A DNA stretch of 64,000 bases from a phage, in sequence record PZ386959.1. One strand, 5' to 3'. The position numbers and the translations under genes were made by a program. How positions within the stretch are numbered: the stretch's first letter is position 1; each line of letters starts with the position of its first letter. Under the pieces are notes generated by a model. It was not told where the DNA came from. It searched no databases and saw only the letters and a program-made list of their open reading frames with translations. Below, piece by piece: positions 24,485-62,123 of this stretch.

Positions 24485-25030
24485 TCAAAAGTGTCCTTTT
24501 ACTTGTGGAACATAAATTTCAAAGGTTGCTTTACCATCCTCTGATGGTTTTGACTGTACCTTTGTAAATACACGGTTATCATACAGCTTCTCAAAGAAGT
24601 TTTCAAAAGGTAAATGCACAGTGGCCTCTTCAGTAACTTTATGGAAGACTGTATGGAACACCACACCAGCATACGGTAAAGCATTGACAAGGACACCTGC
24701 ACCACCAATTACAAAGACATCTTCATCAATAGAGCTATCAAGATACTTCAAAAATGCTCCAAATGACTCTTTACTGGCTTTAGCATACATTACATCATCT
24801 TTGCCAAAGTCTATACCTAAGTATGGTACAGAATTTGTTAAGATGAGGTTTGCACGTTCTGGTAAAGGTTTACTACCCAGAGTCTTAAAAGTCTCATTAC
24901 CCATGACTACTAAGTTATTTTTAGTGAGTCTCTTAAACTCTTGCATGTCCTGTTTATGTCGAGGCCACGGCATACCAGTTGGAGTACCAAACTCTCCATT
25001 TTCACCGCTTGCAAAGATTAATTTAATCAT
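24485..25030 (-). CDS. frd: dihydrofolate reductase
   Basis: N-terminus MIKLIFASGENGEFGTPTGMPWPRHKQDMQEFKRLT resembles phage and bacterial DHFR; immediately upstream of thyA in the same operon. Confidence 0.8.
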   Translation of the reverse strand: MIKLIFASGENGEFGTPTGMPWPRHKQDMQEFKRLTKNNLVVMGNETFKTLGSKPLPERANLILTNSVPYLGIDFGKDDVMYAKASKESFGAFLKYLDSSIDEDVFVIGGAGVLVNALPYAGVVFHTVFHKVTEEATVHLPFENFFEKLYDNRVFTKVQSKPSEDGKATFEIYVPQVKGHF

Positions 25031-25287
25031 TTTGTAAATCCTCTCTTAATGAACCAGTTTATAACATTCTTCACAGCTTTATTACTATGGTAGATTAAGT
25101 GTGGTGTAGGTTGGTATGAACCATAAGCCCAGAATGATAGATGCTCACCGCAACCAACACATGTAGTACTCTCTTCAGCTATGTTCCCATTAACAATCAC
25201 ATGAACTTCACCTTGTAAGTCTGTACACCCACAATGTGGACAGCGGATAGGTGCTCCGTCAGGCTCATAGCAGTGTTCAATTTTCAT
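25027..25287 (-). CDS. small zinc-ribbon protein
   Basis: 86-aa ORF with CPHCGC ... CVGCGEH cysteine pairs. Confidence 0.4.
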   Translation of the reverse strand: MKIEHCYEPDGAPIRCPHCGCTDLQGEVHVIVNGNIAEESTTCVGCGEHLSFWAYGSYQPTPHLIYHSNKAVKNVINWFIKRGFTK

Positions 25288-25803
25288 CTATTTAACCTCA
25301 AAAACTGGCTCAAGAACTAATATAAAGTCTACACAGTCGTCTTCTTCATCCAGAATACCATCAAAATTCTTAGGAACGAAGTCGAAGAGGCTCATTGAGT
25401 AGCGGTCAGAAGTAACCCTGATAGCCCCTCCGATGTTCTCTACAGTTAATATTGTACGACTTTCTTTTACCTCATTCAGAAGATTACTCACAAAATCATC
25501 TAGGAAATACTTCATCAGTGACTTGAAACCTTTAGGGTAATCTGTACCAGAGTATGTTTCAATCTGCGGTACAAGCTTAACATTTATACTAGTCTTTGTT
25601 AAGAACGTTTTAGAGAACATACTATCAGGTAACTTACAAACAGTCTTTCCAGTACCTTCATGCTCAATCTCAACAAAACCAGCTTCATCGCCACATGTAA
25701 CTATTTTAAAAGATGCTTCATTCTCATACTGTGAAGCCATAAACTTTTTAAGCATCTCTTTAAGGAAATCTGCATGAGCATCTTGTAAGTAGATATCAAT
25801 CAT
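25288..25803 (-). CDS. hypothetical protein
   Basis: 171-aa ORF in the minus-strand early block; no motif recognised. Confidence 0.35.
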   Translation of the reverse strand: MIDIYLQDAHADFLKEMLKKFMASQYENEASFKIVTCGDEAGFVEIEHEGTGKTVCKLPDSMFSKTFLTKTSINVKLVPQIETYSGTDYPKGFKSLMKYFLDDFVSNLLNEVKESRTILTVENIGGAIRVTSDRYSMSLFDFVPKNFDGILDEEDDCVDFILVLEPVFEVK

Positions 25804-26177: not shown

Positions 26178-26507
26178 TTAATCTGCCAACCTTAAATTGA
26201 AATTAACACCAAATTTTTCACATACTCCCAACATATACTCAAGGGAGACATTACCAGTGAGATGGATTATGTTGGATACACGAGCCTGAGAGATACCACA
26301 AATTTTAGCAACTTGCTCTTGAGAAAGACCTCTGGATTTAATCTCTCTCTTAAAACGATGTGCAACGAAGTCTCTCATTTCGTCTACATCCATTGGACAA
26401 ATATAACTCTCCATTTCAGCCTCTCTATCAGCCTCCCAATCATCTTGTGGGGCATAAGGGTCAAAAACCTCATTCATCTTTCTTCTTCCGTTTGCGTGAA
26501 GTGTCAA
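26178..26507 (-). CDS. helix-turn-helix DNA-binding protein (XRE-like HTH)
   Basis: C-terminal segment RGLSQEQVAKICGISQARVSNIIHLTGNVSLEYMLGVCEKFGV has the pattern of an XRE-family HTH. Confidence 0.5.
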   Translation of the reverse strand: MTLHANGRRKMNEVFDPYAPQDDWEADREAEMESYICPMDVDEMRDFVAHRFKREIKSRGLSQEQVAKICGISQARVSNIIHLTGNVSLEYMLGVCEKFGVNFNLRLAD

Positions 26508-26682
26508 TCAATGAATCTATGTTTGTAGCCCTAACCTTTTCACGTTCATCATTAAGATAATCATCAAGAGCCTTTTCAATCTGTGAATCATCTTGACAGA
26601 TGACTGTAAAGACTGTAAAGCCGTCTGTATCGTCAATTATCTTACCATAACCGCTTCTGGGATGTAACTTTTTAAGAGCCAT
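26470..26682 (-). CDS. hypothetical small protein
   Basis: 70-aa ORF whose 3' end overlaps the HTH gene start by about 38 nt; real status uncertain. Confidence 0.25.
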   Translation of the reverse strand: MALKKLHPRSGYGKIIDDTDGFTVFTVICQDDSQIEKALDDYLNDEREKVRATNIDSLIDTSRKRKKKDE

Positions 26683-26683
26683 A

Positions 26684-27067
26684 TCAAATACCTGTGCAGC
26701 TTCTGTTTTCTAAGAAATACTCCACACCATACATAGCTTTTTGCATCAAATCTTCTTTAAACTGGATACGATGATTGAGCATAGCCTGTACATCAATATC
26801 ATCAGGGTGCTTCTCTTTAATATTTGCAGATTGCAGGAAATACTCTGCAAGAACACGATACTGATAGTCAGTTACCTTATCAGTCATCTCTGTTAAAGAC
26901 TCTTCAGAGATTGGTTTAAGTAGTTCACCTTTAGATAGGGCAACACCTTTAACAATCTGGCAAGTGTCTTCTGGAACACCTGATAAGTCCACATTTGGAA
27001 GTTCTGTTGCATTGACTGGTAAATTCATTGCCATAACCATTGCAGCAGCTAATAAAATCTTTTTCAT
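26684..27067 (-). CDS. secreted (signal-peptide) protein of unknown function
   Basis: N-terminus MKKILLAAAMVMAMNLPVNA looks like a Sec signal peptide with an AxA-type cleavage site; first gene downstream of intergenic module R1. Confidence 0.45.
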   Translation of the reverse strand: MKKILLAAAMVMAMNLPVNATELPNVDLSGVPEDTCQIVKGVALSKGELLKPISEESLTEMTDKVTDYQYRVLAEYFLQSANIKEKHPDDIDVQAMLNHRIQFKEDLMQKAMYGVEYFLENRSCTGI

Positions 27068-27111
27068 AATGACCTCAAAGTTATATTAAATTTTGTATTA
27101 CATTGAGTATA

Positions 27112-27140
27112 AAAATAAGCTATAACACCTGACTTGTCAA
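27112..27140 (-). promoter_or_regulatory. candidate minus-strand promoter for the secreted-protein gene
   Basis: On the minus strand: -35 TTGACA (plus 27140-27135), 17-nt spacer, -10 TATTTT (plus 27117-27112), about 45 nt upstream of the ATG at 27067; lies in the leader segment shared by modules R1 and R2. Confidence 0.3.
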
Positions 27141-27242
27141 CAGATTTTATAGCTTATTTGGCAGATTTTTTATAAGGCTACTGCCATCCTTCCATACCAC
27201 ACCTCACCCAACCATACCATGCCTTACCAGACCGCACCTTGC

Positions 27243-27316
27243 CTTATTAAAAGACCCTGTTTAAAGACCTTTTAAAAAGGTGAGTCTCATTTTAATGTAG
27301 CTGAGACTAACTACCC
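27243..27316. repeat. conserved 74-nt box, copy 1 (contains hairpin AGTCTCA / TGAGACT)
   Basis: CTTATTAAAAGACCCTGTTTAAAGACCTTTTAAAAAGGTGAGTCTCATTTTAATGTAGCTGAGACTAACTACCC; 73/74 identical to copy 2; a degenerate third copy lies at 27519-27553. Confidence 0.85.
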
Positions 27317-27389
27317 ATACATTACCTCGCCTAACCGCACCCGAATCAACCGGACTAGACCAAGCCCCACTGCACATCACCGAACCAAG

Positions 27390-27428
27390 CATCACTTAAA
27401 AATCCTCTTAGAAGACTCTTAAGTGATG
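27390..27428. repeat. long hairpin, copy 1 (10-bp stem, 19-nt loop)
   Basis: CATCACTTAA-aaatcctcttagaagactc-TTAAGTGATG; the two arms are perfect reverse complements. Confidence 0.8.
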
Positions 27429-27541
27429 TAATCGAATTTTTATGTAGCTCCGATTAACTACCCGCACTTTACCAAACCTCACCCTACCCTACCAGACCTT
27501 ACCTAACCGCGCCGTACCTCATTAAAAGACCCTCTTAAAGA

Positions 27542-27581: not shown

Positions 27582-28022
27582 TTAGAAAGGTTTTCTACGT
27601 TGCTTGTTAATGTTAGCTTTCATAGCAGCTAAATGGTTTTGCTGTTCAATTAGTCGTGAACGTTCTTGATGACTAAGTGCCATAGTGTTCACATTCTCAA
27701 TCGCTTGAGTGGCTTGCTTTAAAGCACGACCAATCTTACCAGACATTTTACGTTTTGCAATAGTTGCTTGATGCTTAGGTTCAACCACACGATAACCAAC
27801 ACCCATTGAAGCAACCAGATAAATCTTCTCTTCTTTAAGAAGCTTCTCAATAAACTTCTCAAGTCGGTTTAGACGTGTAAGCGCATAAGCCTTCATTTCA
27901 TCTTCGTACTTAACAATGTCACCTTGATAAGTTGGTTTCACAATACCTAAGAAGGTATCCATCTCAGAATGTGATACAGTGTCACCGTAACTAAACTTTG
28001 CTGCTAATGCTTTTGTATTCAT
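27582..28022 (-). CDS. hypothetical protein (cassette gene 2)
   Basis: 146-aa ORF with a basic, helical C-terminal half; its stop is followed on the minus strand by a hairpin/U-tract terminator. Confidence 0.4.
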   Translation of the reverse strand: MNTKALAAKFSYGDTVSHSEMDTFLGIVKPTYQGDIVKYEDEMKAYALTRLNRLEKFIEKLLKEEKIYLVASMGVGYRVVEPKHQATIAKRKMSGKIGRALKQATQAIENVNTMALSHQERSRLIEQQNHLAAMKANINKQRRKPF

Positions 28023-28024
28023 AA

Positions 28025-28630
<606 letters not shown>

Positions 28631-28710: not shown

Positions 28711-28900
28711 TACCATCCACCCATACCAGACCAGACCAAGCCAAGCCCAACACTACCGAACCGGACACGACCAGACCTTATTAAAAGACCCTGTTTAAAG
28801 ACCTTTTAAAAAGGTAAGTCTCATTTTAATGTAGCTGAGACTAACTACCCACACCAAACCATAGCATACATCGCATTACCGGACAGAACCATACTTTACC
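28711..28900. repeat. intergenic module R2: two arrays of 5-nt-phased NNACC pentamers (D 28711-28777, E 28841-28900)
   Basis: CC dinucleotides recur at 5-nt (occasionally 10-nt) spacing, for example 28722, 28727, 28732, 28737, 28742, 28747 and 28850, 28855, 28860, 28880, 28890, 28900. Confidence 0.8.
28777..28850. repeat. conserved 74-nt box, copy 2
   Basis: Identical to copy 1 except one G to A change (GGTGAGTC versus GGTAAGTC). Confidence 0.85.
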
Positions 28901-28903
28901 AAA

Positions 28904-28942
28904 CATCACTTAAAAACCCTCTTAAAAGACTCTTAAGTGATG
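28904..28942. repeat. long hairpin, copy 2 (10-bp stem, 19-nt loop)
   Basis: CATCACTTAA-aaaccctcttaaaagactc-TTAAGTGATG; stem identical to copy 1, loop differs at 2 positions. Confidence 0.8.
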
Positions 28943-30607: not shown

Positions 30608-30913
30608 TCATTTTCTCTTACTGCCAATCTCTACGTCGATAACTTGAACATAACCAGCAACATCAAACTTATGAATGATGCTTTCCACAGTGTAAGTCCA
30701 ACCATCAATGCGAACCAACTCACCTTCTCGTGGGACGATGGGATTACGTTGAGCTAAGGTTGTAGTGGAGTGAACAACATCATAACAATAGATATAGTTT
30801 ACTAGGACTTCCATCGTGAAAACCTCACTCAATAACCGTAGTGTGTGATTGACCATTTTTGCCATAGCTATAAGATGTTGTTGTTTGGGAGTTTGGACAT
30901 CTGACAACAACAA
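30608..30913 (-). CDS. hypothetical protein
   Basis: ORF from the track; an internal Met start near 30814 would nearly remove the overlap with the upstream lipoprotein gene, so the 5' boundary is uncertain. Confidence 0.3.
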   Translation of the reverse strand: MLLSDVQTPKQQHLIAMAKMVNHTLRLLSEVFTMEVLVNYIYCYDVVHSTTTLAQRNPIVPREGELVRIDGWTYTVESIIHKFDVAGYVQVIDVEIGSKRK

Positions 30914-31094
30914 TATCTCTGCTTATAGCATCACCATGTAACTTGTATACTCTGCAATCTTGCATCTCTGGTGGGAGACTGTAAGAAGCATTTTTATCTT
31001 CATAAGAAGGGTTGCAGCCAGATAGAAAAACAACACCAAGCGCAATTACTGCTTTCCACATAATACTCCCCCAGAGACTGTACATTTTCTTCAT
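30825..31094 (-). CDS. putative lipoprotein
   Basis: N-terminal signal sequence ending in lipobox-like FLSGC (MKKMYSLWGSIMWKAVIALGVVFLSGC). Confidence 0.45.
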   Translation of the reverse strand: MKKMYSLWGSIMWKAVIALGVVFLSGCNPSYEDKNASYSLPPEMQDCRVYKLHGDAISRDIVVVRCPNSQTTTSYSYGKNGQSHTTVIE

Positions 31095-59862: not shown

Positions 59863-60411
59863 ATGAAGAAATTGATTCTAGGTTTGTGCTTAATGTTTAC
59901 AGCACACTTATCTTATGCAGTTGACTGCCCAGAGCTATCAATTAGCCAAAAAGTAAACATGTTAAAAGCTTACCAGTATGGTGAGAATAACATGGGTAAA
60001 GGTTGGGGTATCACTCTAGCTGCTATAGCCTTACAAGAGTCAGAGTTAGGTCTGAAGGTAGAGAATAAAAAGACACATGATTATGGTATTTTCCAGAATC
60101 ACTTGAAGACTGTTGTAAAGCGTAACAAAATTAGTCCTAATGTGGCTAAAAAGAAACTCTTAAGAGACTTTGACTATGCTGCAAAGGAAACGCACAAAGA
60201 ACTTGAATTTTGGACAAAGGTGCATGGTCAGCCAAAGTCAAAGAAAACTTTACAAAAAGTTTTAGCATCATATAATGCTGGGTATTCGTACAGAATCCCT
60301 AAAGCTAAAAAATATTCTCAAGATGTCTATAACAACATGAAAGTTATCGCTCAATGTGAATTTGCAACAAACATTTCTAAGGTAAATCATGAAAAAATTA
60401 AGAAAGTTTGA
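59863..60411 (+). CDS. secreted lytic transglycosylase (SLT domain); candidate endolysin or periplasmic murein hydrolase
   Basis: Signal peptide MKKLILGLCLMFTAHLSYA; SLT-like motifs AIALQESELG, DYGIFQ and AYNAG-like LASYNAGYSY. Confidence 0.55.
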   Translation: MKKLILGLCLMFTAHLSYAVDCPELSISQKVNMLKAYQYGENNMGKGWGITLAAIALQESELGLKVENKKTHDYGIFQNHLKTVVKRNKISPNVAKKKLLRDFDYAAKETHKELEFWTKVHGQPKSKKTLQKVLASYNAGYSYRIPKAKKYSQDVYNNMKVIAQCEFATNISKVNHEKIKKV

Positions 60412-61612: not shown

Positions 61613-61960
61613 ATGACATTTAAAGAGTTCTGTCAAGCTACTTTCATAATTGTTTTCTTAGTTGGGGCGGGTGTCTGGGGAGGGTACTCTTACAGAGACT
61701 ACCAAGTTGCTGAAACTGAGCTAAACAATCAAAAGCTCATAAGTGTTGCTAAAGATGCTTATCAGGAAGGATTAGTTACACTGAGCACCAATTACAAAAA
61801 TGATTTGAAAGATGTGCTTGCTAAGAATAAGCACACAAAAGAGGTACTAACATATGAAAAAACTAAGCCAGAGTTTTATAATGTTTGTGTTACTGATAAT
61901 TATGTCAGGGTGTTCAACGAACAAAGTGAACAGTACATTCAAAAACTCCCAAGTAAGTGA
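61613..61960 (+). CDS. i-spanin (Rz-like inner-membrane spanin)
   Basis: N-terminal TM helix (ATFIIVFLVGAGVWGG) then a charged helical periplasmic domain; an embedded out-of-frame lipoprotein gene starts within it. Confidence 0.5.
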   Translation: MTFKEFCQATFIIVFLVGAGVWGGYSYRDYQVAETELNNQKLISVAKDAYQEGLVTLSTNYKNDLKDVLAKNKHTKEVLTYEKTKPEFYNVCVTDNYVRVFNEQSEQYIQKLPSK

Positions 61961-62123
61961 GAGTGATAAGTACACTCAAGAAGAGTCAAGATTCACTGTC
62001 AAAGGTAATACTGGTAGTGATGTGGCAGCAGCCCTTGAGTTTTATCGTGATGGTTTTTACCAGTGCACAATTAAAGCTAATAACCTTATTGACATGATTT
62101 TATTAGGGAATAAGCAGCAATGA
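61854..62123 (+). CDS. o-spanin (Rz1-like outer-membrane lipoprotein)
   Basis: Signal peptide with lipobox LIIMSGC (MKKLSQSFIMFVLLIIMSGC); begins inside the i-spanin gene in another frame and extends past its stop. Confidence 0.5.
   Translation: MKKLSQSFIMFVLLIIMSGCSTNKVNSTFKNSQVSESDKYTQEESRFTVKGNTGSDVAAALEFYRDGFYQCTIKANNLIDMILLGNKQQ

Follow-up and report, generated by a model that had tools for sequence, protein, structure and literature searches.

The window analyzed herein, a stretch of 64,000 nucleotides of phage DNA (sequence record PZ386959.1), carries on its minus strand, which the original prediction had left unspecified, at positions 26684..27067, a coding sequence for a protein of 127 aa, which was identified as the orthologue of ORF87 of phage Felix O1 (Felix01p159, NP_944938) and as a member of PHROG 4332. 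The HMM of this family matched residues 1-127 of the protein with profile positions 1-126 of 126 (E value of 5.7e-66), and a tblastn search found ORF87 in 259 phage records. A further orthologue is bumzen_41, the annotation of bumzen having the pVOG label VOG4947. In all relatives, including PHROG 4332, the annotation reads "hypothetical protein". Within Felixounavirus, synonymous changes in ORF87 far outnumbered the non-synonymous ones, with dN/dS values of 0.06-0.12. The full-length family match, the number of records, the low dN/dS and the transcript detected in Felix O1 (see below) thus established ORF87 as a genuine, conserved gene of Felix O1-like phages under purifying selection.

The 4-kb neighbourhood of ORF87 was 93-97% identical to many genomes of Felixounavirus, a genus of Felix O1-like myophages that infect E. 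coli and Salmonella. When the records with an Ounavirinae-type major capsid protein were counted by host, ORF87 was carried by all of those from Escherichia (120/120), Shigella (23/23) and Citrobacter (11/11), and by 76 of the 81 from Salmonella. ORF87 was missing from 44 records in which the identity of the capsid protein is only 60-80%; these come from phages of Erwinia, Pectobacterium and Hafnia and from a small number of Salmonella phages, SE5 among them. The Erwinia Kolesnikvirus genomes were devoid of the whole six-gene block from ORF87 to ORF82, having instead a single unannotated 184-aa gene between the ligase and dihydrofolate reductase (DHFR) genes. The diverged orthologues from Mooglevirus, Suspvirus and a metagenomic relative exhibited 31-42% identity. 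One further metagenomic sequence of 57 aa (P0029) was revealed to be a frameshifted ORF87, 73% identical over residues 1-41 and in frame to approximately residue 30, which may reflect either an occasional inactivation of the gene or an assembly error.

ORF87 is the first gene of a tight operon with 1-nt spacings or overlaps. It is followed by ORF86 (26470..26682, minus strand; 70 aa, PHROG 4473), which starts 1 nt past the ORF87 stop, and, as the third gene, by a Cro/C1-type HTH regulator corresponding to Felix O1 ORF85 (26178..26507, minus strand; Pfam HTH_3, E value of 3.1e-09), for which the start annotated in relatives is window position 26477. Three more small genes complete the operon, with the DHFR and thymidylate synthase genes lying beyond, and the gene order was kept in all relatives, even in the 31%-identical metagenomic one. 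One gene of the operon, ORF83 (25288-25803, minus strand), is the second most diverged of the shared genes with 35.5% identity to its phiSUSP1 counterpart, and ORF82 (25027-25287, minus strand; 86 aa) has a CxxC...CxxC zinc-ribbon and a sub-threshold likeness to Lar-type restriction-alleviation proteins (NCBIfam TIGR03655, E value of 0.0027; Pfam, E value of 0.067).

Upstream of the ATG, a Shine-Dalgarno sequence GAGG (27073..27076, minus strand) lies at a distance of 5 nt and was conserved among the relatives compared (alignment A3). As the original prediction had proposed, ORF87 proved to be the first gene after the repeat region and to be preceded by a candidate promoter: motif and conservation both pointed to a sigma-70-type promoter, TTGACA-17-TATTTT followed by TATACT (27112..27140, minus strand), of which TGTTGACA and the downstream TATAC were invariant in eight diverged Ounavirinae, including the most distant one. 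The -35 hexamer of this promoter lies within the 9 nt that separate the arms of a 19-nt inverted repeat (27113..27159, minus strand). This repeat, after which comes a T-run, has a folding energy of -17.8 kcal/mol as RNA, and could be either a hairpin, serving as a terminator for read-through, or an operator. In a distant relative (L007 in alignment A3) the arms of the repeat differ in such a way that G-U pairs would be kept, a hint that the repeat acts as an RNA hairpin, perhaps to terminate read-through, and not as a DNA operator.

Farther upstream on the same strand, two arrays of GGTNN units with a strict 5-nt period and approximately 10 units each were found at 27186-27523 and 28715-28905, with about 45 nt between the end of the one nearest to ORF87 and the -35 hexamer. 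The pattern (GGTNN)5GGT, allowing up to 3 mismatches, matched 29 times against 0 expected, and all the matches fell in the two intergenic regions that flank a two-gene cassette. The GGT period was kept in Felix O1, bumzen, SUSP1 and SflM004, the spacer bases being variable, and no such arrays were present in Mordin, ESh22 or the metagenomic relative. A search of Rfam with the repeats upstream of ORF87 gave no match, and folding of the arrays, by ordinary or G-quadruplex-aware calculation, was no better than that of shuffled sequences. The cassette itself (27582-28627, minus strand) encodes members of PHROG 5926 and PHROG 4652, both of unknown function, has its own promoter TTGACA-16-TATACT (29000-28973) and terminator (27570-27555), and is bracketed by 129-nt direct repeats of 82% identity (27192-27320 and 28726-28854). 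It was missing from Felix O1 and Mordin, in which the ligase gene directly precedes ORF87, and was 98-99% identical to that of phiSUSP1, as against 32% for the adjoining ORF87; it thus looks like a recently exchanged mobile cassette.

With regard to timing, end-point RT-PCR of S. Typhi infected with Felix O1 detected the ORF87 transcript (supplement of PMC3185647). It fell outside the 5-min and 10-min classes and was maximal at 25 min ("middle"), together with the transcripts of the ligase (88), polymerase (96) and thymidylate synthase (80) genes (PMC3185647). Apart from this 2010 RT-PCR table, a search of the literature on Felixounavirus transcriptomics, signal peptides or exclusion returned nothing bearing on ORF87. 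The original prediction had described the protein as early. This was borne out insofar as the gene has its own conserved sigma-70-type promoter within a unit for replication and nucleotide metabolism, but not in the strict sense of the word, since the RT-PCR maximum coincides with that of ligase and polymerase; ORF87 is pre-late and co-expressed with replication functions.

It had also been proposed that the product has a Sec-type signal peptide with no lipobox and is probably periplasmic, and our rule-based and comparative evidence agreed well with each of these points. The predicted signal peptide MKKILLAAAMVMAMNLPVNA (codons 1-20; 27008..27067, minus strand) is followed by TELP and comprises an n-region with a charge of +2 (MKK), an uncharged h-region of 11-13 hydrophobic residues from I4 to M14 (or L16), and a c-region with the helix-breaking P17 at -4, V at -3 and A at -1, so that cleavage is expected after A20 (V-N-A/T, the slash marking the cleavage position). 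The MKK n-region (+2) was present in all 18 distinct N-termini of the family, as was A at -1, the relatives having the sites A-A-A/M, A-S-A/M, A-Y-A/D and A-S-A/N, and the uncharged run including the c-region was 15-20 residues long in every member. In the diverged orthologues the individual residues of the N-terminal 18-20 drift and the layout of the n-, h- and c-regions stays the same. Furthermore, the Shigella phage vB_SflM_004 was found to carry a natural chimera of the gene, in which Felix-type sequence extends from the promoter through the leader and the signal peptide and gives way to Moogle-type sequence after approximately codon 20; its breakpoint, between nt +47 and +77 (codons 16-25), coincides with the predicted cleavage site, indicating that the signal peptide was swapped as a module. 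In the AlphaFold2 (AF2) model described below, residues 1-19 had pLDDT values below 50, as would be expected of an unstructured signal segment. In an hhalign comparison with T4 Spackle, whose signal peptide is experimentally known to be cleaved (PMC7677548), the signal segment was also the sole part of ORF87 to align, its partner being the Spackle signal peptide. A lipobox (L-[AS]-[GA]-C, with Cys at +1) was looked for in ORF87 and was absent, as the first Cys of the protein in the window is residue 36; one clade has a Cys7 inside the h-region, likewise with no lipobox, and this residue is replaced by Tyr in P0017. The mature part contained no second hydrophobic segment, its maximal Kyte-Doolittle mean over 19 residues being 0.6.

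Two other readings of this N-terminus were considered. The Ala/Met-rich h-region somewhat resembles a SAR domain, and the segment might stay uncleaved and tether ORF87 to the inner membrane as a periplasm-facing signal-anchor/SAR protein. However, the h-region, at 11-13 residues, is too short to sit comfortably with such an anchor and is followed by Pro and a conserved small-x-small site having A at -1 throughout, and the recombination boundary in vB_SflM_004 falls at the position of the cleavage site, making this reading quite improbable. That ORF87 is cytoplasmic, its hydrophobic N-terminus being part of the fold, is exceedingly improbable, because the N-terminus is unstructured in the model, varies in sequence with constant signal features and is exchangeable as a module, and because two lone invariant Cys residues in the remainder of the protein fit an oxidizing compartment. 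ORF87 is thus very probably exported and cleaved, and its periplasmic location is well supported in silico by the conserved cleavable signal, its modular exchange, the unstructured signal segment and the two invariant Cys residues of the mature part.

A crude scan of the 159 ATG-initiated ORFs of at least 50 aa in the window found this type of N-terminus in four, namely ORF87, an SLT-like protein and two lipoproteins. The SLT-like protein (59863-60411, plus strand; 182 aa), encoded directly after rIIB, has the Sec-type signal peptide MKKLILGLCLMFTAHLSYA followed by VD and a weak, below-cutoff match to the SLT lytic transglycosylases (Pfam, E value of 0.0012), and is predicted to be the second soluble exported protein of the phage. 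Its relatives occurred in 2124 phage records, many of them genomes of 150-180 kb from phages of Escherichia, Klebsiella, Salmonella, Vibrio and other hosts. The o-spanin at 61854-62123 is one of the two lipoproteins. The gene of the other, at 30825-31094 (minus strand) in the pre-late region between the ligase and DNA polymerase genes, encodes a predicted lipoprotein of 89 aa that begins with MKKMYSLWGSIMWKAVIALGVVFLSGC, has the lipobox LSGC and has no counterpart in phiSUSP1; in formal terms it may be a better match than ORF87 to an exclusion factor of the Llp/Cor type.

The predicted mature domain of ORF87 (26687..27007, minus strand) consists of 107 aa and is acidic (pI 4.6). It contains exactly two Cys residues, Cys36 (26960..26962, minus strand; codon read directly) and Cys124 (26696..26698, minus strand), and both were invariant in all 29 family sequences aligned (alignment A2 plus P0030), including the 31%-identical metagenomic member. 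While an AF2 model from the single sequence was useless (pLDDT 39.5), the model built on a 28-sequence alignment reached a mean pLDDT of 85.4 and a pTM of 0.75, and predicted three helices at residues 31-45, 55-86 and 93-121. A natural 3-aa deletion (P0003) maps to the predicted loop between helices 2 and 3. The segments of both Cys residues had pLDDT values of at least 95, and the high value of the Cys124 block (95), which is C-terminal and lies past the last helix, would fit its being pinned to helix 1 through a disulfide. Given the invariance of the two residues down to 31% identity and the confidence of both segments, Cys36 and Cys124 are probably disulfide-bonded. Approximately 22 positions of ORF87 were invariant in total. 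Those other than the two Cys residues include G47-E48-L49-x-K51-P52, D63, D67, Y70, Y76, D90, G114, F118, R122 and G126, and the charged residues E48, K51, D63, D67, D90 and R122 appeared to be exposed; several of the invariant residues look like helix caps or packing residues.

In order to place ORF87 among known proteins, sequence, profile and structure searches were combined. Pfam gave no match, and the sole NCBIfam match (16.6 bits) aligned residues 1-45 with the start of a fimbrial subunit, probably a mere resemblance between signal peptides. A word-indexed protein search together with an exhaustive HMMER search of 1.84 billion representatives yielded five clusters at 50% identity, all belonging to this phage family, and no bacterial relatives. 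With Foldseek, nothing in the PDB scored below E = 1 and only a member of the same family was recovered from BFVD, and a profile search of the PDB sequences (E up to 10) returned nothing meaningful, T4 Spackle not being matched. Comparisons by profile, Foldseek and hhalign with known exclusion factors likewise revealed no match in sequence or fold. A relationship with T4 Spackle was rejected, since the hhalign probability was 13% and just the two signal peptides aligned (residues 1-25), the mature domains having no similarity, and no shared fold was found. A relationship with T4 RI was also rejected (hhalign probability of 0.2%). ORF87 therefore belongs to no characterized family.

The divergence of ORF87 places limits on its possible role. 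When every gene of the window was compared with the phiSUSP1 genome, ORF87 was the most diverged of the 84 shared genes, with 32.3% identity against a median of 81%, and only ORF83 approached it. For comparison, the identity was 93% for the major capsid protein, 92% (91.9%) for the holin, 80% for the tape measure protein, 76% for the i-spanin, 75% for the SLT-like protein and 51% for the distal tail fibre. ORF87 is thus strongly constrained inside a genus, diverges extremely from one genus to another, and has alleles that recombine. A gene that determines specificity or competition would be expected to behave in this way, and the pattern is compatible with such a role, though it is no proof of one.

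On the basis of these observations, we propose that ORF87, which heads an accessory operon specific to the clade, is expressed ahead of the late genes from a host-type (sigma-70) promoter of its own, that its precursor is very probably exported by the Sec pathway and cut after Ala20 by signal peptidase I, and that the acidic mature protein would fold in the periplasm into a three-helix bundle with the Cys36-Cys124 disulfide formed by DsbA. Since no catalytic motif or cofactor site was found in ORF87, the mature protein might then act as a stoichiometric binding or blocking protein. The genus-specific hyper-divergence led us to propose, tentatively, that its role lies in competition between phages, the already infected cell being shielded from other phages, be it from their entry or from the damage that they do to the envelope. 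We rank exclusion or competition first among the possible functions, at a probability of roughly 0.3, mainly on the evolutionary pattern and on an architectural analogy with T4 Spackle, which inhibits the gp5 tail lysozyme in the periplasm. Next in rank is a target in the host envelope, and a role in lysis control is unlikely. The two roles suggested in the original prediction, superinfection exclusion and inhibition of host envelope functions, are both retained as candidates.

A role in competition is favoured by the fact that ORF87 is core to the records from Escherichia, Shigella and Citrobacter with an Ounavirinae-type capsid and that its alleles recombine. On the other hand, conservation between the genera is 80-93% for those parts of the tail that reach the periplasm, which would not by themselves drive ORF87 to 32% identity, and the RT-PCR class of the transcript is middle and not immediate-early. 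The receptor of this type of phage is LPS, as described in the Bas63 cryo-EM paper, so that a soluble periplasmic protein would be unable to mask it. In addition, the tape measure protein and the Dit-like, hub and puncture proteins gave no Pfam match to a hydrolase domain, the Bas63 virion paper describes no tail peptidoglycan hydrolase, and the only GH24 lysozyme found was the 154-aa endolysin. With no peptidoglycan-hydrolase domain found in baseplate, hub or tape measure, self-exclusion of the Spackle type lacks an evident target. A more specific version, which we regard as rather unlikely, is that ORF87 binds a component of an incoming tail once it appears in the periplasm, such as the end of the tape measure or the helical cap that covers the puncture tip, and blocks DNA entry without inhibiting a lysozyme. 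The Felix-, Moogle-, SUSP-type and other alleles would then define genus-specific "exclusion groups" in Ounavirinae, and ORF87 would stand for a new kind of superinfection-exclusion factor, soluble and periplasmic, among myophages that bind LPS.

The same anatomy of a small, exported, disulfide-bonded binder would also fit modulation of the host envelope, in which ORF87 would bind a periplasmic component of the host, inhibit or redirect it, and thereby condition the cell for infection; candidate targets are, for instance, enzymes that cleave or synthesize peptidoglycan, proteases such as DegP and Prc, sensors of envelope stress, and components of the Tol-Pal or Lpt system. Expression alongside the replication genes and the approximately 22 invariant positions with their exposed charged residues are consistent with such a function, as is the distribution of the gene: the clade of Escherichia, Salmonella, Shigella and Citrobacter phages has it as a core gene, and the clade of Erwinia, Pectobacterium and Hafnia phages lacks it along with the whole six-gene block. 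Felixounavirus and Suspvirus, however, share E. coli K-12 as a host, and yet their ORF87 proteins are only 32% identical, which is unexpected for one conserved target and makes a single such target in the host awkward. Most of the invariant residues, moreover, can be read as structural (helix caps, packing Gly and Cys), and homology to known inhibitors was not found. We consider a host-envelope target conceivable but doubtful.

Control of lysis timing, in which ORF87 would act either as an RI-like antiholin on the periplasmic part of the holin or as an inhibitor holding back the secreted SLT-like muramidase of the phage until lysis, draws on the gene content of the phage. The phage possesses rIIA and rIIB genes, a holin-annotated protein whose one hydrophobic segment is N-terminal and whose C-terminal part of about 95 aa is predicted to be periplasmic, and the signal-peptide-bearing SLT-like protein, and T4 RI is also small, helical and periplasmic. 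The similarity to T4 RI was negligible, as mentioned above, and the holin and the SLT-like protein are conserved at 92% and 75%, respectively, where ORF87 is at 32%; the absence of co-divergence argues against a tight partnership with either of them, and hence an involvement in lysis timing is unlikely. A coupling to the SLT-like protein in particular was rejected, as its 2124 records include Erwinia Ounavirinae that lack ORF87. Finally, ORF87 is predicted to be small, helical, acidic and periplasmic and the phage encodes several exported proteins, but a helper in the periplasmic folding or assembly of phage envelope proteins such as the spanins, the lipoproteins and the SLT-like protein is highly unlikely.

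All in all, ORF87 is a reasonable but ordinary candidate for follow-up by experiment. The current gain is an upgrade of its annotation from "hypothetical protein" to "predicted secreted periplasmic protein", and no discovery is claimed. Felix O1-type phages are widely used in Salmonella typing, biocontrol and therapy cocktails, and most of their pre-late genes are of unknown function. ORF87 offers a cheaply testable candidate for a determinant of the outcome of mixed infections, that is, of compatibility within cocktails and of exclusion between related phages. If it proved true that ORF87 targets a host envelope protein, it would constitute a small natural inhibitor of that target.

Among the known systems, T5 Llp and Cor of phi80, N15 and T1 are exported phage envelope proteins that are made before lysis and are able to block reinfection. 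They are lipoproteins masking the outer-membrane receptor FhuA, whereas ORF87 has no lipobox. T4 RI is a small helical phage protein of the periplasm with an N-terminal export signal, but it keeps an uncleaved SAR domain where ORF87 has a predicted canonical cleavage site, and ORF87 does not co-diverge with the holin. Generic antiparallel three-helix bundles, such as domain I of the ribosome-recycling factor and designed bundles, are also among the closest known systems. In its general architecture ORF87 resembles T4 Spackle (gp61.3, sp), whose signal peptide has been experimentally shown to be cleaved (PMC7677548). The genes of both proteins sit among replication genes, and the two have in common a cleaved Sec signal, a small size, an acidic alpha-helical bundle that holds one disulfide, and a periplasmic location, all known for Spackle (PMC7677548) and predicted for ORF87. 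In contrast, mature Spackle is a flat bundle of 75 aa with five short helices, as compared with the 107 aa and three long helices predicted for ORF87, and it is an early gene product, while ORF87 of Felix O1 peaks at 25 min. If the proposed role in competition holds, ORF87 would be analogous to T4 Spackle in function while being unrelated to it.
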